From: a virus
Lineage: Duplodnaviria > Heunggongvirae > Uroviricota > Caudoviricetes
Virus record (IMG/VR): IMGVR_UViG_2531839665_000020
Span: 1 to 26,759 of that record
Length of the DNA: 26,759 nucleotides
Reading direction: 5' to 3' (one strand)
Under the pieces are notes generated by a model. It made no database searches and was not told the DNA's origin. It was given only the letters and a program-made list of their open reading frames with translations. Both the position numbers and the translations under genes were made by a program. Numbering within the stretch: the first letter of the stretch is position 1; each line of letters starts with the position of its first letter. Positions 1 to 16,018 of this stretch are shown here, in pieces.

Positions 1-381
1 ATGCAGAAAAATGTGACTCCCGGCAGGCGAAAAGGCTGCCCTAATTATCCTCCCGAATTTAAACAGCAGCTCGTTGCTGCCTCCTGTGAACCCGGGATAT
101 CCATCTCAAAACTTGCTCTTGAAAATGGCATTAACGCCAATCTGTTGTTCAAATGGCGACAACAATGGCGCGAGGGAAAGCTGCTATTACCTTCTTCAGA
201 GAGCCCCCAGCTACTTCCTGTGACTCTCGATGCAGCTGCCGAACAGCCAGAATCGCTCGCAGAGGACCCGGAAACCCTCAGTATCAGCTGTGAGGTAACG
301 TTCCGGCACGGGACGCTCCGCTTCAATGGCAATGTCAGCGAAAAGCTCCTGACTCTGCTGATACAGGAACTGAAGCGATGA
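1..381 (+). CDS. IS66-family accessory protein orfA (TnpA-like)
   Basis: 126-aa ORF starting at base 1; N-terminal helix-turn-helix-like region (KQQLVAASCEPGISISKLALENGINANLLFKWRQQW) typical of IS66 orfA; stop overlaps the orfB start (ATGA at 378-381). Confidence 0.85.
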   Translation: MQKNVTPGRRKGCPNYPPEFKQQLVAASCEPGISISKLALENGINANLLFKWRQQWREGKLLLPSSESPQLLPVTLDAAAEQPESLAEDPETLSISCEVTFRHGTLRFNGNVSEKLLTLLIQELKR

Positions 382-725
382 TCCCGTTACCTTCCGGGAC
401 CAAAATTTGGCTGGTTGCCGGTATCACCGATATGAGAAATGGCTTCAACGGCCTGGCTGCGAAAGTACAGACGGCGCTGAAAGACGATCCCATGTCCGGC
501 CATGTTTTCATTTTCCGGGGCCGCAGCGGCAGTCAGGTTAAACTGCTGTGGTCCACCGGTGACGGGCTGTGCCTCCTGACCAAACGGCTGGAGCGTGGGC
601 GCTTCGCCTGGCCGTCAGCCCGTGATGGCAAAGTGTTCCTTACGCAGGCGCAGCTGGCGATGCTGCTGGAAGGTATCGACTGGCGACAGCCTAAGCGGCT
701 GCTGACCTCCCTGACCATGCTGTAA
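378..725 (+). CDS. IS66-family orfB (TnpB)
   Basis: 115-aa ORF with IS66 TnpB signature ([22 protein letters not shown] ... FIFRGRSG); translationally coupled to orfA. Confidence 0.9.
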
Positions 726-774
726 ATCTCTTTATCCTGGTTGTCACAGAATAAGCCCGGTAAAATACGGGCTT

Positions 775-2313
775 ATGAACGACATCTCTTCTGACGACAT
801 CTTCCTGCTGAAACAGCGCCTGGCCGAACAGGAAGCGCTGATCCACGCCCTGCAGGAAAAGCTGAGCAACCGGGAGCGCGAAATAGACCATCTGCAGGCG
901 CAGCTGGATAAACTCCGCCGGATGAACTTCGGCAGTCGTTCCGAAAAAGTCTCCCGCCGTATCGCACAAATGGAAGCCGATCTGAACCGGCTTCAGAAAG
1001 AGAGCGATACGCTGACTGGTAGGGTGTATGACCCGGCAGTACAGCGTCCGTTGCGTCAGACCCGCACCCGTAAGCCGTTCCCTGAATCACTACCCCGTGA
1101 CGAAAAGCGACTGTTGCCTGCGGCGCCGTGCTGCCCGAACTGCGGCGGTTCACTGAGCTATCTGGGCGAGGATACCGCCGAACAGCTGGAGTTGATGCGT
1201 AGCGCCTTCCGGGTTATCCGGACGGTACGGGAAAAACATGCCTGTACTCAGTGCGATGCCATCGTGCAGGCACCTGCACCTTCGCGGCCCATCGAGCGGG
1301 GTATCGCCGGACCGGGGCTGCTGGCCCGCGTGCTGACCTCGAAGTATGCAGAGCACACCCCGCTGTATCGCCAGTCAGAAATATACGGCCGGCAAGGTGT
1401 GGAGCTGAGGCGTTCACTGCTGTCGGGCTGGGTGGATGCATGCTGCCGGCTGCTGTCTCCGCTGGAAGAGGCGCTTCATGGCTATGTCATGACTGACGGC
1501 AAACTCCATGCCGATGATACCCCGGTCCAGGTACTGCTGCCGGGTAATAAGAAGACGAAGACCGGGCGGTTGTGGGCGTATGTTCGTGATGACCGCAATG
1601 CAGGGTCAGCGTTGGCACCTGCAGTGTGGTTCGCTTACAGCCCGGACAGAAAAGGCATCCATCCGCAGACTCATCTTGCCTGCTTCAGCGGTGTGCTGCA
1701 AGCGGATGCGTACGCCGGGTTCAACGAGCTGTATCGCAATGGTGGGATAACGGAAGCTGCCTGCTGGGCTCATGCCCGCCGAAAGATCCACGATGTGCAC
1801 GTCCGCATCCCGTCAGCACTGACGGAAGAAGCCCTGGAGCAGATCGGTCAGTTGTACGCCATAGAGGCGGATATAAGGGGAATGCCGGCAGAGCAGCGGC
1901 TTGCTGAACGTCAGCGAAAAACGAAACCGTTGTTGAAATCCCTGGAAAGCTGGTTGCGTGAAAAGATGAAGACCCTGTCGCGACACTCAGAGTTGGCGAA
2001 GGCGTTCGCGTACGCACTTAACCAGTGGCCGGCACTGACGTACTATGCGAACGATGGCTGGGTGGAAATCGACAACAACATCGCTGAAAATGCCCTGCGG
2101 GCGGTCAGTCTGGGTCGTAAAAACTTCCTGTTCTTCGGCTCTGATCATGGTGGTGAGCGGGGAGCGCTACTGTACAGCCTGATCGGGACGTGCAAACTGA
2201 ATGACGTGGATCCAGAAAGCTACCTTCGCCATGTGCTTGGCGTCATAGCAGACTGGCCGGTCAACCGGGTCAGCGAACTGCTTCCGTGGCGCATAGCACT
2301 GCCAGCTGAATAA
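775..2313 (+). CDS. IS66-family transposase (orfC)
   Basis: 512-aa ORF with N-terminal leucine-rich coiled coil, CxxC...CxxC zinc-finger region and DDE-type core, following orfA/orfB as in IS66. Confidence 0.9.
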
Positions 2314-2396
2314 CACATCCCCGTCAATACGGCCCTCGCTGTACGCTTACGGTATTTCTGACTCATGGCCGTTTTTATAATGCGGCCAGGTGTTTT

Positions 2397-2747
2397 TTAC
2401 AACATTGTCAGGGCGTTAAGGCGGGATGTTTTTGGCTGACGCCAGTCCAGCTTATCGAGGAGCATTGCCAGTTGCGAGCGGGTAATGGATACCTTACCGT
2501 CACGCACCGCAGGCCAGATAAACTGGCCTTCCTCCAGGCGTTTGGTGAACAGGCACAGACCATCAGCATCAGCCCAAAGAATTTTAACGGTGTCCCCCCG
2601 TCGGCCACGGAAGATAAACAGGTGACCGGAGAAGGGATTATCATTCAGCACATGTTGTACCTGTTCTCCCAGTCCGTTGAAGGATTTACACATATCGGTA
2701 ACGCCGGCAACGAGCCAGATACGGGTACCTGATGGGAGTGAAATCAT
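2397..2747 (-). CDS. IS66-family orfB (TnpB), second copy
   Basis: 116 aa, MISLPSGTRIWLVAGVTDMCKSFNGL..., clearly paralogous to the 378..725 product but diverged. Confidence 0.85.
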   Translation of the reverse strand: MISLPSGTRIWLVAGVTDMCKSFNGLGEQVQHVLNDNPFSGHLFIFRGRRGDTVKILWADADGLCLFTKRLEEGQFIWPAVRDGKVSITRSQLAMLLDKLDWRQPKTSRLNALTML

Positions 2748-3169
2748 CTTCCCCTCCCGCTCAGTTCGCGGATTAACATCGTGAGCAGCTCTGGCGATGG
2801 ATTTTCCAGCGTCATGTTACCGTGACGGAATTCCACCTTGCAGGAACTGGCACTGACTCTGGTCTGAGTGGAAGTGGATAAAGACGGCGCAATGGCCGCC
2901 ACAGGTTCTTTCTGCTCATCCGGCGTTATTTCTACAGGTAATAATTCAACGCCAGTGTCAGAAGAGGTTGTTACCGGAAGACGCCGCGAAACATGCCCTT
3001 CGTTCTGCCAGAGCCTGAGCCATTTGAAAATAACATTATCATTGACGCCATTTTCTCGTGCAATCTGTGTAACACAAGCTCCAGGTTGTGATGCCAGTTC
3101 AACCATACGAAGTTTGAATTCATTCGAATACTTTTTACGAGGTTCTTTTCGCCAGTCCTGTAATTCCAT
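2744..3169 (-). CDS. IS66-family orfA, second copy
   Basis: 141 aa with the same HTH-like motif (EFKLRMVELASQPGACVTQIARENGVNDNVIFKWLRLW); ATGA-type overlap with downstream orfB. Confidence 0.8.
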   Translation of the reverse strand: MELQDWRKEPRKKYSNEFKLRMVELASQPGACVTQIARENGVNDNVIFKWLRLWQNEGHVSRRLPVTTSSDTGVELLPVEITPDEQKEPVAAIAPSLSTSTQTRVSASSCKVEFRHGNMTLENPSPELLTMLIRELSGRGR

Positions 3170-3296
3170 ACTTAGATGTCCGTCTGTGTCAGATGGGCGT
3201 CTAAGTTACCAATTCTTGTCTAATGGCTACATACGGCGGTCGGTTTACGCTTACTCTAATTCGTCAGATTCTGACCAGACGGTTCAGGCTGTACGC

Positions 3297-3431
3297 TTAC
3301 GATTCTTTAGGCAGATAATAATTTTGATCAGCCCATTCAACTGCCGTCATTGGTACAACCCTGACCAGAGGCTGCAGCGCAACCGAAACGGCAGCCATCA
3401 TATTATTCAGTTGTTGCTCTGATATATTCAT
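3297..3431 (-). pseudogene. Terminase large subunit (gpA-like), N-terminal ~44 codons only, truncated by IS66 insertion
   Basis: Translation MNISEQQLNN...PMTAVEWADQNYYLPKES matches the lambda gpA N-terminus pattern (MNIS...TAVEWADANYYLPKES); the reading frame runs into the IS66 terminus at 3300 and stops at 3297; start overlaps the 3' end of the Nu1-like gene. Confidence 0.7.
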
Positions 3432-3912
3432 CGAGTAAATCCGGTAATTTATCCCCTGCCCGCGCACACTGATTTGCCCCCTTAGCAATAAGGGTTTTCA
3501 GATGGTCAAGATGGCGCGGTGTTAAATCAGGAAACTGTCGCTGCATGGATAAAGGGATGGAATCAAGCGTACTGGATAACGCCATTGCCAGCTTACTGAG
3601 GGCAAAAATACAGAACCCGGTGTCAATAAGTTTTCCTTTTGACACCTCATTTTTTAACTGCTGTGTAACAGCCTGTTCTGCTGTCAGTTCCCATCTGGCA
3701 ATAAGCAATTTCTCCTCATAGTCGTCTTCGCTATCGCCATCAGGCACATCGTTTTTACTTCTCCTCAGATACGATATGTAAAAATCGCGCCAGGCATCCA
3801 GATCCAGTTGCCCTCGCTTATTCGATATCGGGGCACCCGGCAATTTCTGCAATCTGCGAAGCTGGCGATCGGTCAGACTTAAATGCCTGGCAACTTCAGT
3901 CTGCGTAGCCAC
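3403..3912 (-). CDS. Terminase small subunit, Nu1-like
   Basis: 169 aa; C-terminal region (TGFCIFALSKLAMALSSTLDSIPLSMQRQFPDLTPRHLDHLK...LLDEYI) resembles Nu1/NohA; GTG start preceded by GAGGTGAGGA; cos site immediately upstream. Confidence 0.8.
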   Translation of the reverse strand: MATQTEVARHLSLTDRQLRRLQKLPGAPISNKRGQLDLDAWRDFYISYLRRSKNDVPDGDSEDDYEEKLLIARWELTAEQAVTQQLKNEVSKGKLIDTGFCIFALSKLAMALSSTLDSIPLSMQRQFPDLTPRHLDHLKTLIAKGANQCARAGDKLPDLLDEYIRATTE

Positions 3913-4613: not shown

Positions 4614-4928
4614 TTAGCATTTTTTTGACCGCGCGTTTCCGGACGTATTCTGTTCTCCTGTCCCTTTATATCGTCGGAATACCCGCCGCTCTTCAAATCC
4701 CATTCCCAACTCAGAATGTAGTCTGTTGACCGCTTGTTTTATTTCGGTCAGGTTCACCGGTGAAACCGGAGTCCGGCGCGCCTTACGCAAACACTCTGCT
4801 CGTTTCTGTGCCGCCACTTTTCTTTTCTGGTCATCACTTAGCTGTACCATCACTTTTGCCCATCGTTCAGCTGCTCTCCGGTACAGTCCTTTTTTCTCCA
4901 GACATTCTGCCACGTGATCATGTAGCAT
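4614..4928 (-). CDS. PerC-family transcriptional regulator (Pch-like)
   Basis: 104 aa; motif LEKKGLYRRAAERWAKVM matches the PerC/Pch signature; ATG preceded by GGAGG; long A-tract-rich region upstream. Confidence 0.7.
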   Translation of the reverse strand: MLHDHVAECLEKKGLYRRAAERWAKVMVQLSDDQKRKVAAQKRAECLRKARRTPVSPVNLTEIKQAVNRLHSELGMGFEERRVFRRYKGTGEQNTSGNARSKKC

Positions 4929-5393: not shown

Positions 5394-5861
5394 TCACGGT
5401 ATACACTGGGTACGGATATATTCCTGTGCTCCTTCCAGTTGCTTCTGCATTGCCATCAGCCGTTCTCTGAGGATGAAATAATCCCGTTCAGCGGCTTCTG
5501 CCAGTCGGGGACCGGTTGCATTATCCACGCCGGAGGTGATGGGGGCTTTACGCAAGGAGCCTGGACAGTTGGCGTTGATGCGCAGGCGCTTACGACCAGC
5601 GGCAACATCAGCACGCAGAGTTTCATTTTCAGCTCTCGCATCGGCTAATTCCCTCGAGTATCTGGCATCAAGTGCAGCGACATCACGCTGGCGTACCTGC
5701 ATATCAGTAATTGTCACGTTCGCCAGCTTCAGCTCACTGGCTTTTTTATCGCGTTGCGCTTTGTAGGTAATGGCGTTATCGCGGTAATGATTCAGCCCCA
5801 GACTAAGCACACCACAGGCTACCAGCAGGACAATAATCACCACACACAGAACACGGTTCAT
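5394..5861 (-). CDS. Rz: Spanin inner-membrane subunit Rz
   Basis: 155 aa; N-terminal TM segment followed by [25 protein letters not shown]...[10 protein letters not shown], a close match to lambdoid Rz. Confidence 0.9.
5456..5641 (-). CDS. Rz1: Spanin outer-membrane lipoprotein Rz1 (embedded in Rz, +1 frame)
   Basis: 61-aa ORF nested in Rz; lipoprotein signal (LPLVVSAC) then Pro-rich stretch ([16 protein letters not shown]) typical of Rz1; exact start (M1 vs M6) uncertain. Confidence 0.75.
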
Positions 5862-6350: not shown

Positions 6351-6884
6351 TTATCTGTCAATTCCCCAGCACGCCAGTGCACTTTCCTGGTCTCGCCGGG
6401 ATACCTGACCGTAGCAATTATTTGAGCGGATACGGCAGTCTCTGCCACCGTCCTTAATCCACCAGCGAATCGCTTCGCAGGCACCTTTTCGATCACCTGC
6501 ATTAATCCGTCTGTAAAACGTAGACGGGAAACACTTACCGGGGCCAATGTTATAAGGACAAAATGACGCGATACCCGCCTTCTGGGGTTCGGTCAGCGGT
6601 ACTTTAATATTGCGCTCCACCCACTCCAGCGCCTTATCACGTTCAATGGCGTTAACCTGGTCGCACTTTTCCTTCGATAACTTCATACCCGGGACGACAG
6701 GCTTACCATCCACTCGGGTGGCACCGCGGCAGATGGTCCAGATCCCCGCACCATCACGGTATGCCGTGGTGTGGTTACCTTCTTTTTCGTCAAGAAACTG
6801 GTCGAGGATTTCAGGCGCAGACGTCCCTGCACCAATCAGCGCCAGAACGGCAGCCGACAGGCCGTATCTGATTTTTGCGTTCAT
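6351..6884 (-). CDS. R: Endolysin R, SAR-type lysozyme (T4-lysozyme-like fold)
   Basis: 177 aa; N-terminal signal-anchor-release-like segment (YGLSAAVLALIGAGTSAP) and catalytic E/D/T region (EGNHTTAYRDGAGIWTI) as in phage 21 R. Confidence 0.9.
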   Translation of the reverse strand: MNAKIRYGLSAAVLALIGAGTSAPEILDQFLDEKEGNHTTAYRDGAGIWTICRGATRVDGKPVVPGMKLSKEKCDQVNAIERDKALEWVERNIKVPLTEPQKAGIASFCPYNIGPGKCFPSTFYRRINAGDRKGACEAIRWWIKDGGRDCRIRSNNCYGQVSRRDQESALACWGIDR

Positions 6885-7009: not shown

Positions 7010-7273
7010 ATGAATGAAGAAAATACAGCGCTTTTTGACAGAATTTTCACTCTTGAGTTACAGGTCGGTTTTCTTCTCCCAAAGATAATCAAAGCCATGG
7101 ATGCACTTGGTAAGAATAACGCTGTGTCAGATTACCTGATCGCCGAAATGGAACATCTCATTAAAGAAATACCAAAGACCGATGCTCGTGATGATAAAAG
7201 ATTCCTCAGGGCTGCTGAAAATGCTCTTTCAACAGTGAAGCGCAGTTCAGGCGCGCAGCTAATTCAAGAATAG
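7010..7273 (+). CDS. Hypothetical protein (87 aa), convergent with the 7206..7736 gene
   Basis: AT-rich ORF with protein-like helical composition; weak SD; 3' end overlaps the opposite-strand gene by 68 bp. Confidence 0.45.
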   Translation: MNEENTALFDRIFTLELQVGFLLPKIIKAMDALGKNNAVSDYLIAEMEHLIKEIPKTDARDDKRFLRAAENALSTVKRSSGAQLIQE

Positions 7274-7736
7274 TTTCTTTCATTTCATCTGCTGCAAGCA
7301 CCTCATTTTTTGTTGGGGTGCTTTTTTTCAATTCAGTAACACAGCACTCCAGTTTTTCAATACGTGATTCAACATCATCTTTTTCTGACCGCAGTGTTGA
7401 CGGCGGCATCTTCAGAGAACAAGTAATTCTTCCCGGTAGCTTTCCTTTGTAGGTTATCAACACATCCTGCGCCTCTAAAATTACGGGGCGATTTTCCGGC
7501 AACGGACCATCCCCTTCACATAACCCGGCAGCAACATCCATGAAAAACTGCTTCGCCTGCTTTTTCGCCTCAGCTTCGTAAAACTCCAGCGTGGCACCTT
7601 CAGTACGGTCAAGACTAATCGCCACATCTGGCAACAACAGTGACGGATACCCACCAATTTCCAGTGCCACAGTAACAGTAATCTTATCCGGGTAATTATT
7701 TATCCCTTTAACAACCAGTTCGTATTTTTTCTTCAT
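7206..7736 (-). CDS. Hypothetical protein (176 aa) inserted between holin and endolysin
   Basis: ATG 5 bp downstream of the holin stop with GGAGAG SD (translationally coupled to S); lower-GC codon usage than flanking lysis genes; no domain recognised. Confidence 0.65.
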   Translation of the reverse strand: MKKKYELVVKGINNYPDKITVTVALEIGGYPSLLLPDVAISLDRTEGATLEFYEAEAKKQAKQFFMDVAAGLCEGDGPLPENRPVILEAQDVLITYKGKLPGRITCSLKMPPSTLRSEKDDVESRIEKLECCVTELKKSTPTKNEVLAADEMKETILELAARLNCASLLKEHFQQP

Positions 7737-7740
7737 CGCT

Positions 7741-7956
7741 TTACTCTCCCCGCGCCGCCTTACGACGGTCCTCTCTGATTTTGAAATACAGGTTAGTCAG
7801 ATATGTCAGCAGCCCAAACAGCAGACTCCCCAGCACGCCTATTGCCGCCCACTGAGACGGAGAGACTTTGTCCAGCAGCTGCAGGAACCAGTAGCCCGTT
7901 CCCACCGCTGACGTGGTGTATGACACACCTGTTGTGATTTTTTCCATCTGGTACAT
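7741..7956 (-). CDS. S: Class II holin / pinholin S (phage 21 S-like) with dual-start motif
   Basis: 71 aa [71 protein letters not shown], very close to S21; Met1/Met4 dual start. Confidence 0.9.
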
Positions 7957-8031: not shown

Positions 8032-8301
8032 TTACATCATCATTTCGCCGTCAGGCTGAGGCTCACTGCTACCGTCAGGCTGAGACACGACGCCATCTGA
8101 AACAGCACTGTCACCCGCGCCGTCTTCAGGCTCAGGAGCAGCCGGTCCCCCCAGCAGCTCATCCAGAATGGCATCCACTTCAGCATCAAGACGCGCCTCA
8201 AGATTCTGGCGGAGTTGCTGTTTCAGTGCGCTTCTGACTTCTTCAGAGCGCAGGACGTCCTTCACTGCTTCAGCAGTGACCAGAGATTTTATTTCTGACA
8301 T
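8032..8301 (-). CDS. Acidic hypothetical protein (89 aa)
   Basis: Internal ATG at 8301 chosen because the longer ORF (to 8457) overlaps the upstream 60-aa gene; product MSEIKSLVTAEAVKD... with Asp/Glu/Pro-rich tail. Confidence 0.55.
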   Translation of the reverse strand: MSEIKSLVTAEAVKDVLRSEEVRSALKQQLRQNLEARLDAEVDAILDELLGGPAAPEPEDGAGDSAVSDGVVSQPDGSSEPQPDGEMMM

Positions 8302-8338: not shown

Positions 8339-8521
8339 CTACGAAATGAGAGGCTCTTCGGGTTTTGTTCCGGCTGACTGGCTGGCGCTGATTTTTTCCG
8401 CCGCCGCGGCATCAATCTTTTTGCGTATATAGTTCCGGATAACCTTATACCCGCCACTTACCAGATATAACGTGCACACCACCGTGCAGAAATACAATAA
8501 AATAAGCTGTACAAATCTCAT
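8339..8521 (-). CDS. Small membrane protein (60 aa)
   Basis: ATG preceded by GGGAGGG; single TM helix (LILLYFCTVVCTLYLVSGGY) followed by a basic tail. Confidence 0.5.
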   Translation of the reverse strand: MRFVQLILLYFCTVVCTLYLVSGGYKVIRNYIRKKIDAAAAEKISASQSAGTKPEEPLIS

Positions 8522-8668: not shown

Positions 8669-10606
8669 TTACGGGTTATTCACTTCCACTGTTATACTTT
8701 CAATCAGCACCGGATATGTCGCACCGCTAGTGATATCGGTCACGCGCAATTTGTCTGCCGTAAACGTGCCGACCGGTGACTGTGACAGCATGAACGGCGT
8801 CCCGTCCTTACCATCAATGACCGGCGTCACCTCAATACTGTTGTTACCGGCAAAACGGAAGCCCAGCGTATGCCATTCGTTATCAAATGCGCCGAATGAC
8901 CCCAGCTTCGTGTTCTGACCAGCATTTCCCTTGTGGTACATCACATTAAGGTCTGTGGCATCGCTCTGTACGTAAAACGACGCCAGCAGGTTATGAGCGG
9001 CATTACCTTCCAGTGTGACGCCCTGAGGCAGTGAAGAAACCGGCCAGTACAGCGCCAGTGCGTACTGATTAGCTGTCAGTGTGCCATCAACTTTAAAACG
9101 ACAACTGATAAGCCCGCCCTTCTCCAGCAGGTCTGCGCCATTACCGGCATCATGCTGCATAAACCACGAGGAACTTCCTGTCTGTTTGGTCCACCTCAGC
9201 GCCTTACCTCCTGCAGCACCTGCATCATCAACTACCAATGCACGCCCTCCTTCAGCTCCCCATCCCTGCGGATTCAGTAAACCACCTGACTCTGTTGCAC
9301 GGTAATAAAGCAGCGTTGTCACTGATTTCCCGTCCGTTGACGGTGTTGATGGTGTGTCCGGTGACGGCTTCTCATCCGGCGGCATCACAACCTGTTCCCC
9401 ACCCACCAGTTCAGCCGTCCGTCCTGCATGGAGAAGAATCGCTGAGGCAAGACGGTCAGAAATAATCCCCCTGCGTGCCCATGAGCTGAAATGGCTCGCA
9501 CGGTCTGCTGACGTCCAGTTTGCCGACGTCCGGGAGGCCGCACCGTAATATCCTGATGCCGGAATATCCGGGTCTTCTTCCGGTTTGTTCGTCGGGACAT
9601 TTGCTCCGTTCTCATCGGTCATGAACGGCACAAAGTGAATATTCTTTTCCGTTTTGTTTTTGTAACTGCCGTACACCGTCTGGTAAGTGGATTCGCTCTT
9701 CTGCTTCCAGAAATAAGTTGTGTCTCCACATATCCAGGGAACACCGTCAGCAGAACCACCAGCGCACTGTCCCACCATATCTGCAAGGTCCGTACGATAT
9801 TGTTCCACTACTTCTGTAAAACGGGCTGTGTGATTTGCTGGCGTTCCGTCAAAGTCAAATTCCCCCTGCATCCACACCACGGCAAGCAGCACATTTTTCG
9901 GGTTCTTTGCCAGCGCGGCTTTTGTACGACCGATGAGATCCTTATACAGCGGCCTGCCCACACCCCAGCGGGTAGAACTCTCTGAGGCACCGGTCACGTC
10001 ACTGTATGTTCCATCTGCCCCGGTGGTGAAAGCTGAACCACCACGGCAGCACGGAACCAGAAGAATACCCGCATTCGCCGGTATAAACGGCAGCAGCTTT
10101 TTGGCAATATGCAGCCCCTGCCCCACGGTTCCGTACTGACCTTTCGACAGGTCAGCTTTCGGATGGTTAAGACGGCTCATGTCCTGTACATCATGCAGAC
10201 AGTGGTCTGCCGGAATAATGTCGTTATATTTACAGGGAGCGCCATCCGGCGTCACTGTGCTGCGACGAGCCAGTTGCTTTATACGCGGGTCAGGACGGTC
10301 ATATGTCTGCGGCAGAGGAAGCCCCTCACCGTAAGCCATGCCGTTCGACTGCCCGGCCAGTGGAATAACGTAGTAATAATCTGGCTCCGTGGTGACCACT
10401 CCCGGATAGCCACCATCCCCCGTGCCGGGCACAACCACTGGCGTGGTCACATCCCCCTCCGCGGCAATCGCCTGCATCAGGGTATAAGGGGTTATGGCCA
10501 CCGGACTACCAAACGGCTGCCAGCCCTCTTTCAGTTTGTGTGTCAGCTTTTCCGCAAGATCTGACGGCGACGCCGCCCTGACAACATCATAATGTTTAAT
10601 CGACAT
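8669..10606 (-). CDS. nanS-p: Prophage sialate O-acetylesterase NanS-p type (DUF1737 N-terminus + SGNH esterase + C-terminal lectin-like domain)
   Basis: 645 aa; GQSN esterase motif (VIPLAGQSNGMAYGEG); length and architecture match the NanS-p proteins found downstream of stx in EHEC prophages; ATG preceded by GGGAG. Confidence 0.9.
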   Translation of the reverse strand: MSIKHYDVVRAASPSDLAEKLTHKLKEGWQPFGSPVAITPYTLMQAIAAEGDVTTPVVVPGTGDGGYPGVVTTEPDYYYVIPLAGQSNGMAYGEGLPLPQTYDRPDPRIKQLARRSTVTPDGAPCKYNDIIPADHCLHDVQDMSRLNHPKADLSKGQYGTVGQGLHIAKKLLPFIPANAGILLVPCCRGGSAFTTGADGTYSDVTGASESSTRWGVGRPLYKDLIGRTKAALAKNPKNVLLAVVWMQGEFDFDGTPANHTARFTEVVEQYRTDLADMVGQCAGGSADGVPWICGDTTYFWKQKSESTYQTVYGSYKNKTEKNIHFVPFMTDENGANVPTNKPEEDPDIPASGYYGAASRTSANWTSADRASHFSSWARRGIISDRLASAILLHAGRTAELVGGEQVVMPPDEKPSPDTPSTPSTDGKSVTTLLYYRATESGGLLNPQGWGAEGGRALVVDDAGAAGGKALRWTKQTGSSSWFMQHDAGNGADLLEKGGLISCRFKVDGTLTANQYALALYWPVSSLPQGVTLEGNAAHNLLASFYVQSDATDLNVMYHKGNAGQNTKLGSFGAFDNEWHTLGFRFAGNNSIEVTPVIDGKDGTPFMLSQSPVGTFTADKLRVTDITSGATYPVLIESITVEVNNP

Positions 10607-10949
10607 CGAATTTCTCCCGTGTACAGGAACAGAGTTAAAAAGCCGGAACCGGAATCAAATCACAGGATGACCATCTGCCAGTGGCTGGTCGTAAAAAAAA
10701 GGCCGCGCCATGCGCAGCCGGAAATAAAGGGATAACGATGATAGTTTGAGAAAAACAGAAATAACACTTTTGTGGCAAAGCATGGTGCCGGGTGCCTCCC
10801 GGTGAATTCAGTACCAGCACCTGAATCCGCGATTATCCCATATACCTAGTTGCTGATTGCCCCTCCGCACAGGGGGATTCACCATGCAGTAGTATTTTTA
10901 ATAAACAGTAAACAAAAAAATCAAGCATTATGCAGGCTGTTTCTTTTTA

Positions 10950-11087
10950 TCACCGGCCACAGCAATACCACAATGCCGCAGACCAGCCCCCATCCGCCAG
11001 CACCGACATGATTCTGCTGGTGAAATCCACCATCACCACCAGAAACAGCAGGAGTGCAGCCACAGCCAGGCGCAGTTTTACCGTCAC
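10950..11087 (-). CDS. Small hydrophobic ORF (45 aa, GTG start), speculative
   Basis: GTG overlapping the TerB-like stop (GTGA) with GGAG 10 nt upstream; product MTVKLRLAVAALLLFLVVMVDFTSRIMSVLADGGWSAALWYCCGR has one TM helix; not in the ORF track because it is under 60 aa. Confidence 0.25.
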   Translation of the reverse strand: MTVKLRLAVAALLLFLVVMVDFTSRIMSVLADGGWSAALWYCCGR

Positions 11088-11480
11088 AGGTGATTCTCCA
11101 GACGAAGCCCCAGAACACCGGCAATCTCTTCCAGCACCTTGCGCTCTTCCGGCTCAATTTCGCCGTCTGCCTCCGCAATGGCCACCGCCACATCCAGCAC
11201 ATCTTCCGCTTCACGCGTATCGCGTTTCACATCCTCGATCTCACGTAACGCCGCACGACGACCAATTTTAAAGTTCGTATCCAGCTGACCGATAATGGTT
11301 GCGCTAATCGCATTAATTTCTGACGTAAACGCGGACAGCGCTGGCTGATTACGCAGTACCTGTTCGATCTTCGCTTTCTAGGAAGCCTCACATTCACCAT
11401 TTGCACAGGCCACCAGGTATGCGGCGTTAATCACCGCCTGTGCCAGATCGCGTTTCTCAAACTTTCCTTTTTCCGGTTAA
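11084..11480 (-). pseudogene. TerB-like (tellurite-resistance TerB domain) gene remnant, disrupted
   Basis: Manual - strand translation gives ...KGKFEKRDLAQAVINAAYLVACANGECEAS(amber)KAKIEQVL...AVAIAEADGEIEPEERKVLEEIAGVLGLRLENHL with two TerB-like ADGE-type repeats; in-frame TAG at 11378-11380, upstream TAA, no usable start. Confidence 0.45.
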
Positions 11481-11579
11481 CGTGACACACCAATAACTCT
11501 TGTCGAAAAAGCCAGCAAGCTGAAAGACCGGTATTCACAACCACCAGCGCGTTTACTGTACTGGCGTGATTTCAGTCAT

Positions 11580-11606
11580 AAAAAAACCCGCCTGGCGACG
11601 GGTGTA
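11580..11606 (-). terminator. tR'-like rho-independent terminator downstream of PR'
   Basis: On the - strand: GC-rich imperfect hairpin (CACCCGTCGCCAGGCGGG) followed by TTTTTTT; about 60 nt downstream of the predicted late promoter. Confidence 0.7.
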
Positions 11607-11644
11607 AAAAATCTTCTAACGTCAGGCATAAAACGCCCATCGTT

Positions 11645-11680
11645 AGGGCAAATTTACCACAGATTCGGGAAAAATCAACA
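11645..11680 (-). promoter_or_regulatory. Late promoter PR' (with presumed qut site) immediately downstream of Q
   Basis: - strand TTGATT (11673-11678), 16-nt spacer, TAAATT (11651-11656); position relative to Q and tR' matches lambdoid late-control architecture. Confidence 0.5.
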
Positions 11681-11683
11681 AAG

Positions 11684-12505
11684 CTATCTGGTCACCTTTT
11701 TCAGTTGTTGTTCTGCCCATGCTTCTTCAATATCAAACTGCACCACCAGCGTATCGTAAAAACGTTTAACTGTTTTTTTCCATGTATCAAGAGATATGGC
11801 ATCGGTTACATTACATATGGCATTAAATGCCTCCGTTGAAGGTAATCTTTCATAGCCACGACCACCACAACGCTGGCAGTCTCTGATAACAGGCATACCA
11901 CGTTTTACCGACTCTTCACGATGAATGGCAACACCGCGCCCACGACAATCTTTACAGGCGGTGGAAACCTCCCCCTTCCCTCCACACTCCGGACAGGCAA
12001 CTTTTACCACCTCCCTGACTTTTTTCCATTCCTCCCAGTAAGACGGATACACGCCTTTTGTGCACTTTGCCCACACTGGCGGCTTACCATCCGGATACTG
12101 GATCTTGTTTGTAAAAACCTCGCTTTCAATAAATTTTTTTCCGTGACAACAGGGGCACTGTTTTTTGCTCGCCGCGCTACGGGCATAATCTTCAAACGCA
12201 TACGAAGCCATAATACGCATCACTGCCGGTTTTATTTCTGCCGGGAGTTTTCTTAACGCCGCCACGCGATCACACCGACTGAGTGCATATTCTGTCAGCA
12301 ATTCTGTTGCCCGCTCTCTGTCATTCATACTAATGCCCATTTTCCCAAGGAACGCAGAAAACCCCATCTCAGCCCAATTCTGTGTCATGCCCTGCGCGGC
12401 CATCACATCAGTGATACTCAGCGTATCTTTCGACGTTGAGGCCGATGCATCAGTCAGGCCGGGGGATTTTGGGGAGTAGTATTTCGGTAAATCTTCCAGT
12501 TTCAT
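11684..12505 (-). CDS. Q: Late antiterminator Q (phage 82/21-type, zinc-binding)
   Basis: 273 aa with four CxxC motifs (CPCCHGKK, CPECGGKG, CKDCRGRG, CQRCGGRG) and overall similarity to 82-type Q; ATGA overlap with rusA stop. Confidence 0.85.
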   Translation of the reverse strand: MKLEDLPKYYSPKSPGLTDASASTSKDTLSITDVMAAQGMTQNWAEMGFSAFLGKMGISMNDRERATELLTEYALSRCDRVAALRKLPAEIKPAVMRIMASYAFEDYARSAASKKQCPCCHGKKFIESEVFTNKIQYPDGKPPVWAKCTKGVYPSYWEEWKKVREVVKVACPECGGKGEVSTACKDCRGRGVAIHREESVKRGMPVIRDCQRCGGRGYERLPSTEAFNAICNVTDAISLDTWKKTVKRFYDTLVVQFDIEEAWAEQQLKKVTR

Positions 12506-14765: not shown

Positions 14766-14921
14766 TTACTCCTCAGGTTCGTAAGCTGTGAAGACAGCGA
14801 CCTCCGTCTGGCCGGTTCGGATTCGTACCTCGCAGAGGTCTTTCCTCGTTACCAGTGCCGTCACTATGACGGTTAAACAGATGACGATCAGGGCGATTAA
14901 CATCGCCTTTTGCTGCTTCAT
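14766..14921 (-). CDS. hok: Hok/Gef-family type I toxin (51 aa)
   Basis: MKQQKAMLIALIVICLTVIVTALVTRKDLCEVRIRTGQTEVAVFTAYEPEE matches the Hok family; ATG preceded by AAGGAGAAG; an in-frame upstream ATG at 14978 gives a 70-codon mok-like extension. Confidence 0.85.
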   Translation of the reverse strand: MKQQKAMLIALIVICLTVIVTALVTRKDLCEVRIRTGQTEVAVFTAYEPEE

Positions 14922-14924
14922 AGC

Positions 14925-15010
14925 CTGCTTCTCCTTGACCTTTCGGTCCGTAAGAGGCAATCTATATGTGACGAGCATATAGGGGCCTCACTTCGATTTA
15001 TAGTCGGGTG
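14925..15010 (+). ncRNA. Predicted Sok-like antisense RNA region (approximate)
   Basis: Placed by analogy with plasmid R1 hok/sok: leader elements GCTTGAGGCTATCTGCCTC and GATTGCCTCTTACGG resemble the R1 hok leader as I recall it; exact RNA ends not determinable by eye. Confidence 0.3.
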
Positions 15011-15112
15011 GGGCTTTTATCTATCTGCCGTTGGTGTTCATGCCCGAGGCAGATAGCCTCAAGCACCCGCAGCAATTCTACTTAACTCTGCCGTTACAGC
15101 AAGCCGTTTTCG

Positions 15113-15259: not shown

Positions 15260-16018
15260 TCAAGTGCCTTTCCTGGTCCAGCCATATTTTTTGAATGCAG
15301 GCGCCGCTTCATCGGTTTGTAGCCATTCTGCAAATCGACGGGTTTCATCATTTGCATCCTGACGTACTGTAATGTTCATATCACGCCATATCACGTAGTC
15401 TGGCGCTATTTCCACGACATCACCAATTTCTGGATTACTGGCTGCCCAGTCAGCCCAGGTTATCCAGACATCTGCTTCAGGCTGATTCTCAAGAGCCTTA
15501 CGTGCAGTTCCGCTATTGGGCGCATATAAAATAATATTTTTTCGGATTGCGGCGACAGTTTCTATATTCCCTTTACGTCCGGCAATATCTTCCCAGACGC
15601 CAGTGCCTGATGTATTACTGGTACCACCACCATCATTAACAATTACGCCAATCCCGGGTCTGGTCAGGTCGTCAATACTCCGGATATTTTTAGGATTACC
15701 TTTCTTTACCAGTAAAATACTTTTTCGCAGATAAAGAGGCTGAATATCTTTTTCACTGAAGCTGTCTTTATGGTCCCGAATGATAGCCAGAGCAGATTGT
15801 TCTGATGCGCCAAACAAGATATCTGCATTTTTTTTGGCATCTTCATTCCATTTGTTCTGTGGGCCGTAATGAACGTTCACTATAATACCTGTTTTTTCGG
15901 CATAAAGTTTGGCTGCATCAAGCAAGGCTGTATGCGGGCCACCAGGACCATACAGATTGATATCAGCATAAGCAGCAGAAGACAGGAATATTAAAAAACC
16001 TGCCATTATGTTCCTCAT
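15260..16018 (-). CDS. Orphan periplasmic substrate-binding protein, ModA/TupA-like
   Basis: 252 aa; signal peptide (MAGFLIFLSSAAYA); ADILFGASEQSA and C-terminal AAPAFKKYGWTRK resemble E. coli ModA (ADLFISADQKW; AAEIFKRYGFTIK); no permease or ATPase gene adjacent. Confidence 0.8.
   Translation of the reverse strand: MRNIMAGFLIFLSSAAYADINLYGPGGPHTALLDAAKLYAEKTGIIVNVHYGPQNKWNEDAKKNADILFGASEQSALAIIRDHKDSFSEKDIQPLYLRKSILLVKKGNPKNIRSIDDLTRPGIGVIVNDGGGTSNTSGTGVWEDIAGRKGNIETVAAIRKNIILYAPNSGTARKALENQPEADVWITWADWAASNPEIGDVVEIAPDYVIWRDMNITVRQDANDETRRFAEWLQTDEAAPAFKKYGWTRKGT

Follow-up and report, generated by a model that had tools for sequence, protein, structure and literature searches.

Prophage-encoded sialate O-acetylesterases of the NanS-p type are already well described, since publications cover the gene family and its enzymology, the solved structures of two domains, the place of the gene in the late operon and its occurrence in prophages without Shiga toxin (Stx) genes (PMC10462455; PMC8065619). 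All tested NanS-p alleles of Escherichia coli EDL933, seven to ten in number, and of O104:H4 were active and supported growth on 5-N-acetyl-9-O-acetylneuraminic acid (Neu5,9Ac2; reviewed in PMC8065619), and multiple prophage alleles within one strain were found to be active (PMC8065619). Furthermore, nanS-p homologues are induced under phage-inducing conditions (PMC10462455, in stx2a-positive Stx-producing E. coli; PMC8065619). In phage phi24B, the homologous protein gp84 is reportedly abundant in virions and processed, and cryo-electron microscopy density reportedly places its DUF1737 hexamers in the capsid hexons (preprint, bioRxiv 10.64898/2026.04.10.717836). A 2026 preprint on the Pas small RNAs (sRNAs) located PasD/STnc100 upstream and PasA/PasC downstream of the prophage sialic-acid esterase gene. 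Herein, a 26,759-nt stretch of caudoviral DNA (IMG/VR record IMGVR_UViG_2531839665_000020, positions 1 to 26,759; "the window" throughout) was analysed computationally for its NanS-p-type gene and for the interval separating that gene from the late antiterminator gene Q. The open reading frame (ORF) at 8669..10606 on the minus strand very probably represents an intact nanS-p allele in the late operon of a defective, stx-less lambdoid prophage. Both the gene and its arrangement are already on record, and its exact protein is public; the value of the analysis lies in annotation, where the picture of an empty spacer between Q and nanS-p is corrected. The features concerned are as follows.

8669..10606, minus strand: nanS-p, a 645-residue three-domain sialate O-acetylesterase ORF
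10693..10913, minus strand: predicted STnc100/PasD-family sRNA gene with its terminator (Rfam RF02076 match at 10747..10913)
10950..11087, minus strand: tciB, a small membrane-protein ORF of the DUF3927 family, frameshifted (Pfam, E 3.6e-9)
11084..11464, minus strand: tciA pseudogene of the TerB family (tblastn, translation and Pfam)
11579..11603, minus strand: tR'-type intrinsic terminator (terminator scan; 7-bp GC-rich stem followed by U7)
11639..11678, minus strand: PR'-like late promoter core (read from the sequence and from similarity to lambda)
11684..12505, minus strand: Q late-gene antiterminator, 273 residues, intact (Pfam PF03589 Antiterm, E 4.7e-50)

The identity of the nanS-p product is considered settled because solved structures match it at 57-69% identity and an exact copy exists in the databases. 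Residues 73-391 match the E. coli NanS/YjhS structure 3PT5 (E 2.5e-119), and residues 429-644 match the crystallised C-terminal domain 6YP6, deposited as "NanS-p" (E 6.7e-96). Pfam models recognise DUF1737 at residues 4-50 (E 3.3e-15), SASA at 83-275 (E 4.9e-11, above the cut-off) and DUF6645 at 494-611 (E 5.4e-70), giving a domain layout of DUF1737 at ~1-55, an SGNH type II / SASA esterase at 73-391 and a lectin-like DUF6645 domain at 429-645. The two domains that flank the esterase are a trait of NanS-p proteins and are absent from chromosomal NanS. In the NanS structure 3PT5, the active-site blocks are 17-GQSNA-21, 120-RGGSAF-125, 178-MQGEFD-183 and SHFS-303 (PMC10792757), with Ser19 and His301 as catalytic residues and Gln18 in the oxyanion hole (PMC9063846). 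The window protein has kept all four of these blocks, as GQSNG 85-89, RGGSAF 188-193, MQGEFD 246-251 and SHFS 371-374, and they are identical to 933W NanS-p in those alignment columns. The predicted active-site residues are Ser87 as nucleophile, Gln86 in the oxyanion position and His372 in the SHFS histidine block. Altogether, the SASA/SGNH domain, the catalytic blocks, the flanking domains and a late-region position between Q and the holin gene give the product the sequence features of the NanS-p family. The initial annotation, which had proposed a 645-residue NanS-p-type esterase, is borne out on this point by the ORF at 8669..10606, by the 3PT5 and 6YP6 matches and by the intact catalytic blocks; the SGNH catalytic residues are present in the alignment with NanS and 933W NanS-p. 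By analogy with its characterised homologues, the product would be expected to hydrolyse the 9-O-acetyl ester of Neu5,9Ac2.

The interval between Q and nanS-p (10607..11683) measures 1,077 bp, in agreement with the 1.1 kb stated in the initial annotation; the bare spacer which that annotation implied did not hold up, as the interval contains a promoter-like core, terminators, tciA, tciB and an STnc100-type element. Directly after the Q stop codon, a -35 hexamer TTGATT (11678..11673) is followed after 16 nt by an extended -10 element TGgTAAATT (11659..11651) and by a -10-like AACGAT (11644..11639). The segment GGTAAATTTGnCnnAACGATGGG aligns with the segment immediately downstream of lambda Q, which we take to comprise the PR' -10 element and its sigma-dependent pause signal. 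From this alignment, we infer that 11639..11678 may act as PR' and carry a pause signal. A generic consensus promoter scan missed this core, in which only 8 of the 12 hexamer positions match the consensus. Although the promoter core closely resembles the lambda PR' -10/AACGAT arrangement, the Q protein encoded next to it is a 273-residue PF03589-type protein with DnaJ-like CXXC repeats, placed by Pfam in another family than lambda Q. The Q of a near-identical relative is annotated in RefSeq as "antitermination protein" (WP_000762928.1), and no tblastn similarity was found between Q of the window and the Q genes of 933W, BP-4795 and JLK-2012.

The tR'-type terminator lies ~65 nt past the presumed transcription start, so that a leader RNA of ~65 nt would be made without Q. 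The leader RNA fold has a predicted energy of -26 kcal/mol (z = -2.9), and the terminator annotated downstream of PR' in 933W can be aligned with it. A further hairpin, weaker but also with a U-run, is present at 11650..11634. The terminator just upstream of nanS-p belongs to the sRNA gene, and the hairpin that follows the nanS-p stop codon lacks a U-run. A scan that is insensitive, and that a weak promoter could escape, detected no sigma-70 consensus promoter on the minus strand upstream of nanS-p. Expression of nanS-p from the late promoter, as the initial annotation had proposed, is plausible from the sequence, because the gene lies on the same strand as a lambda-like PR' core and because two or three intrinsic terminators are available for a Q-modified polymerase to override.

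The sRNA gene directly upstream of nanS-p scores 102.2 bits against RF02076, for which the gathering score is 47, and the conserved helices are present. Its rho-independent terminator consists of an 8-bp GC stem (10719..10701) followed by U8, ending at 10693. Elements of the same family occupy the equivalent position in 933W (between stxB2 and nanS-p, 208 bits), in BP-4795 (between stxB1 and nanS-p, 191 bits) and in JLK-2012 (directly upstream of nanS-p, 107 bits). In addition, the window sRNA aligns with the PasD2 region of enteropathogenic E. coli (EPEC) E2348/69 and shares its terminator hairpin, without the PasD seed UGUGAG. The element resembles a hybrid, in which the long closing helix of STnc100 (GCAUGGUG...CACCAUGC) and its inner hairpins are combined with the PasD1/PasD2 terminator hairpin. 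Because other sequence replaces the PasD seed UGUGAG, the targets of the putative sRNA, if it is made, may differ from those of both STnc100 and PasD. For the AsxR/AgvB anti-sRNAs, which follow STnc100 in 933W and BP-4795, the window had no match at E values of up to 1, and for PasA/PasC the esterase-to-holin interval of E2348/69 PP2 gave no blastn match in the window.

Between the tR'-type terminator and the sRNA gene lie the remnants of a tciA-tciB cassette. Residues 18-143 of JLK-2012 TciA align with the window at 96% identity by tblastn, across an in-frame stop. The remnant lacks codons 1-17 as well as a start codon, and it is interrupted by an in-frame TAG at 11378..11380. The TerB family PF05099 is recognised in the remnant when the stop is masked (E 1.6e-9), and no intact TerB ORF of ~143 residues is found. 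RefSeq marks tciA as an "internal stop" pseudogene in two relatives, O103:H2 and O55:H7. Production of a functional TciA by readthrough of the TAG was considered and rejected, since the ORF lacks its 5' end and a start codon and since no tRNA gene, hence no suppressor, is present in the window. In tciB, a 1-nt deletion in a G-run near 10986 shifts the C-terminal third, leaving 45 residues against 55 in the intact O55:H7 copy; the frameshift shows when tciB is aligned with its O55:H7 copy, with TciB of JLK-2012 and with the DUF3927 protein of E2348/69. The cargo found at the corresponding position in the phages compared is given below.

933W: three tRNA genes and stx2
BP-4795: stx1
JLK-2012: three tRNA genes, tciA and tciB
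Present window: decayed tciAB cassette, no tRNA genes

Judged from these sequence comparisons, what lies between PR'/tR' and the sRNA is a slot for variable cargo, and the same position holds stx in Stx phages. The position between Q and nanS-p can accordingly be described as a general slot that has PR'/tR' as one boundary and the STnc100/PasD sRNA as the other and that can also hold a decaying tciAB cassette. No stxA or stxB lies between Q and the lysis genes, the arrangement that defines an Stx-converting phage. By tblastn with Stx2A/B of 933W and Stx1A/B of BP-4795, the best match in the whole window had E = 0.11, and no tRNA gene was detected in the whole window by ARAGORN, nor any in scans with the Rfam tRNA model. 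The absence of stx and tRNA genes noted in the initial annotation was upheld by these tblastn, blastn and ARAGORN searches, and no stx sequences were found within the interval (tblastn, blastn). That annotation had suggested a comparison of the interval with Stx2 phages; the whole Q-to-nanS-p intervals of 933W and BP-4795 match the window by blastn only in the shared sRNA element (10779..10905), and the position of stx is taken by the decayed tciAB cassette. The prophage is regarded as stx-less because its slot holds other cargo, with no trace of stx loss.

These observations also bear on the possibility that the window derives from a former Stx phage that lost its stx and tRNA genes by deletion. 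Stx phages have nanS-p, the holin, lysozyme and Rz genes and the STnc100 element in common with the window, and the Pas-sRNA preprint raises repeated loss of stx as a possible reason why chromosomal esterase-holin modules rarely adjoin stx. Such an origin is nevertheless highly improbable: no stx remnant is found at the protein or DNA level, the slot holds the tciA/tciB cassette as in the non-Stx phage JLK-2012 (90-96% identity), and neither Q nor the terminase is related to its counterparts in 933W and BP-4795. Exchange of modules accounts for the parts in common, with no need for an stx-bearing ancestor.

Downstream of nanS-p, the late region continues on the same strand through the lysis genes.

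8339..8521, minus strand: DUF1378 ORF (Pfam, E 5.8e-40)
8032..8301 (RefSeq start), minus strand: DUF826 ORF (Pfam, E 4.4e-34)
7741..7956, minus strand: class II (P21-type) holin (Pfam)
7206..7736, minus strand: DUF1327/YdfR-like ORF (Pfam)
6351..6884, minus strand: lysozyme (Pfam)
5394..5861, minus strand: Rz (Pfam)

The order on this one strand is Q, PR'-like core, tR'-type terminator, tciA pseudogene, tciB, sRNA with its terminator, nanS-p, DUF1378, DUF826, holin, lysozyme and Rz. The position of nanS-p downstream of Q and upstream of the lysis genes, as in Stx phages, had been reported before and is confirmed by this gene order. Homology between the window and the Stx phages begins at the 5' end of the sRNA and extends across nanS-p to the lysis genes S (97% identical to its 933W counterpart), R (95%) and Rz (82%); for Q and the terminase small subunit, there is no similarity to the counterparts in 933W or BP-4795. 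The window as a whole runs from an integrase gene (25464 to the window end) to the Nu1 terminase gene (3403..3912). Between these lie an excisionase, a RecE-like exonuclease, DicF, a CI-like repressor, replication genes (including P), paa, hok/sok, DUF968, RusA, Q, the late region and a PerC-family gene. Of the terminase large-subunit gene gpA, 131 nt (~43 codons) are left before nested elements of the insertion sequence family IS66 (window 1..3300). Because gpA is cut by these elements, the prophage is defective and cannot package DNA. Q, holin, lysozyme, Rz and nanS-p are all intact, whereas tciA, tciB and gpA are broken.

The state of the prophage is of direct relevance to another view of the gene, prompted by the report that phi24B gp84 is a capsid-decoration protein anchored by DUF1737 (bioRxiv 10.64898/2026.04.10.717836). 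nanS-p would then be primarily a phage structural or accessory gene and not a host-benefit gene, with DUF1737 anchoring a hexameric esterase on the capsid hexons. The virion would thereby bear an enzyme that binds glycans and removes O-acetyl groups, for adherence to mucus or the unmasking of receptors, and the copy in the window would be a leftover or would decorate the capsids of co-resident phages in trans. The intact DUF1737 (Pfam E 3.3e-15) and the location in the late operon with no detected promoter of its own are in keeping with a virion component. Against this stand the inability of the prophage to package DNA, with gpA cut after ~43 codons, and the linkage of the nanS-p-lysis module to three unrelated head/packaging modules, of which 933W has a podovirus type, BP-4795 a type with a fused protease-major-capsid gene and long-tail genes, and the window Nu1/gpA. 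Furthermore, this allele has a loop three residues shorter than the one that bears the Tyr42 "tooth" in phi24B, and its linkers lack the SSP-type processing motifs noted in the phi24B preprint. A Tyr is found at position 41 of the loop, DUF1737 is 56% identical to that of 933W, and the window has no capsid genes. A primarily structural role is on balance unlikely for this allele, although it is the best placed of the alternatives considered here.

The distribution of the locus was examined as well. Copies of the 3-kb region occur in O103:H2, O121 and other E. coli at 99.9% identity and in O45:H2, O55:H7 and some O157:H7 at 99.8%. At least 80% of it is found in 478 of 5,426 complete E. coli genomes, and 3,220 genomes match some part of it, the number of places per genome having a median of 2 and reaching 18. 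The exact 645-residue sequence is present in NCBI (e.g. EFH3490966.1), its 90%-identity cluster has 610 members, and the RefSeq protein WP_000023170.1 differs from it by one residue (A537G). Its neighbours are broken (tciA, tciB and gpA, as well as a fimbrial pseudogene in a relative), and the copy may be redundant, as many genomes hold several matching places; on these grounds, nanS-p could be taken for a neutral passenger with no current function that is decaying together with a defective prophage. The full-length ORF with every catalytic block intact, the intact Q and lysis genes around it, the at least 99% identity of the 3-kb region in 406 records from several serotypes and the recurrence of the exact protein on 30 contigs all speak to the contrary. 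Neutral decay is considered unlikely, and more so than a structural role, because an intact ORF stands beside two broken neighbours and recurs across serotypes.

For an intact nanS-p allele in the late operon, a route of expression and release can be proposed. After derepression, Q would load onto RNA polymerase at PR', and the Q-modified polymerase would override the tR'-type and sRNA terminators, so that nanS-p would be transcribed with the lysis genes. The N-terminus of the product, MSIKHYDVVRAASPSDL, has no hydrophobic signal sequence; because it lacks a signal peptide, NanS-p would reach the medium only through holin/endolysin lysis of the induced cell. Outside the cell, the enzyme would cleave the 9-O-acetyl ester of Neu5,9Ac2 and of similar sialic acids in mucin through Ser87 and His372, aided in glycan binding by its lectin-like C-terminal domain, and sibling cells could take up and catabolise the de-acetylated Neu5Ac. 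A more far-reaching version, in which the locus serves as a Q-triggered "lyse and release" device that provides the esterase to siblings as a public good, or in which DUF1737 mediates loading in trans onto the capsids of co-resident phages, is speculative and has a low probability. Either version, if true, would make the locus a domesticated prophage remnant with a defined role.

Several points weigh against the reading of nanS-p as a late-expressed gene of metabolic benefit. The PR' assignment rests on similarity to lambda, and Q of the window belongs to another family than lambda Q. The C-terminal domain is ~69% and the linkers are ~20-30% identical to those of the characterised 933W/phi24B protein, and because these parts have diverged, the substrate range could differ from that of the 933W/phi24B enzyme. 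If the median of 2 and up to 18 matching places per genome represent extra nanS-p copies, a single copy may be redundant. In addition, given the capsid-decoration report for phi24B, the metabolic benefit may be a by-product rather than the selected role. That benefit is documented for the EDL933 and O104:H4 homologues (reviewed in PMC8065619). A moron is by definition a lysogenic-conversion gene that is transcribed independently, between a promoter and a terminator of its own, while the prophage is still repressed. The label "moron", which the initial annotation had attached to the gene, is doubtful because no promoter of its own was seen, because the gene is embedded in the late operon and because the phi24B homologue is reported as a capsid-decoration protein. 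The term "metabolic moron" should accordingly be used with care for nanS-p, in view of the virion-protein report for its homologue.

Several further observations concern the remainder of the prophage. In the late region, the DUF1327 ORF encodes 176 residues, of which the family match covers only the first 100, and RefSeq describes the gene of a relative as an incomplete YdfR-family pseudogene; an 87-residue ORF on the plus strand (7010..7273), annotated as hypothetical, overlaps its 3' end. Between Rz and the terminase genes, a PerC-family regulator of 104 residues is encoded at 4614..4928 (minus strand; Pfam PerC, E 3.8e-44), whose size and family fit the Pch activators of the locus of enterocyte effacement. 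At the terminase end, the IS66-family elements comprise a complete three-ORF copy on the plus strand (1..381, 378..725 and 775..2313), adjoining orfA/orfB of a second copy on the minus strand (2397..3169). The closest complete genome, O103:H2 FWSEC0007, differs at this point, with an inverted terminase segment between flanking IS3 elements.

In the nin region, a 252-residue solute-binding-type protein is encoded at 15260..16018 (minus strand), for which the RefSeq name in a relative is AcfC-family adhesin Paa; a frameshifted fimbrial pseudogene adjoins paa in a near-identical relative. The sok antitoxin RNA (14919..15068, minus strand; Rfam 104 bits) adjoins hokD as annotated in relatives, and the DicF sRNA is found at 22012..22063 (plus strand; Rfam 77 bits); both are typical of Qin/Rac-like lambdoid prophages. 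An 805-residue protein (22704..25121, plus strand) has an N-terminal region of exonuclease VIII (RecE) joined to an Rv2179c-like 3'-5' exoribonuclease domain at its C-terminus (E 7.7e-63), and its gene adjoins those of the excisionase and integrase.

Comparison with known systems places the window protein among phage-encoded NanS-p enzymes. Chromosomal NanS (YjhS, 3PT5) belongs to the same SGNH type II fold family, with a catalytic domain ~57% identical to that of the window protein and with the Ser/His dyad and the Gln/Gly oxyanion residues conserved. It is a single-domain protein without DUF1737 or the lectin-like C-terminal domain, and it is not phage-encoded. The NanS-p of the Stx2a phage 933W (Z1466 / L0105) has 645 residues, as does the window protein, and both it and phi24B vb_24B_21/gp84 have the same three-domain order and identical catalytic blocks. 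Identity between the window protein and 933W NanS-p is 73% overall, reaching 87% in the esterase, 56% in DUF1737 and 69% in the C-terminal domain, with essentially unrelated linkers. The position is also common to 933W and phi24B, in that nanS-p follows Q and the STnc100 sRNA and precedes the P21-type holin, lysozyme and Rz. Unlike 933W, the window has no stx, tRNA or AsxR genes upstream of nanS-p, its Q and packaging genes are unrelated, and the host prophage is defective.

The PasD2-esterase-PasA-holin module of EPEC E2348/69 PP2 is likewise non-Stx, with the order Q, DUF3927 gene, PasD-type sRNA, SASA esterase and holin. Unlike that module, the window has an sRNA without the UGUGAG seed that keeps the long closing helix of STnc100, and no PasA homologue lies between the esterase and the holin; the DNA identity from Q to the esterase is only ~73-76%. 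The yjhS/nanS-p locus of JLK-2012 and PPyecE_EH1910 have the order Q, tRNA genes (in JLK-2012), tciA, tciB, sRNA and esterase, which is the same cassette as in the window. In JLK-2012, tciA and tciB are intact and follow three tRNA genes, whereas the window has no tRNA gene, a tciA that is 5'-truncated with an amber stop, and a frameshifted tciB. The C-terminal domains of the two esterases are only 33% identical. Elsewhere, the resemblance is close, with identities of 96% for TciA (residues 18-143), 84% for TciB (first 37 residues) and 95% for DUF1737, and with a leader from the sRNA to nanS-p that is 95% identical at the DNA level.

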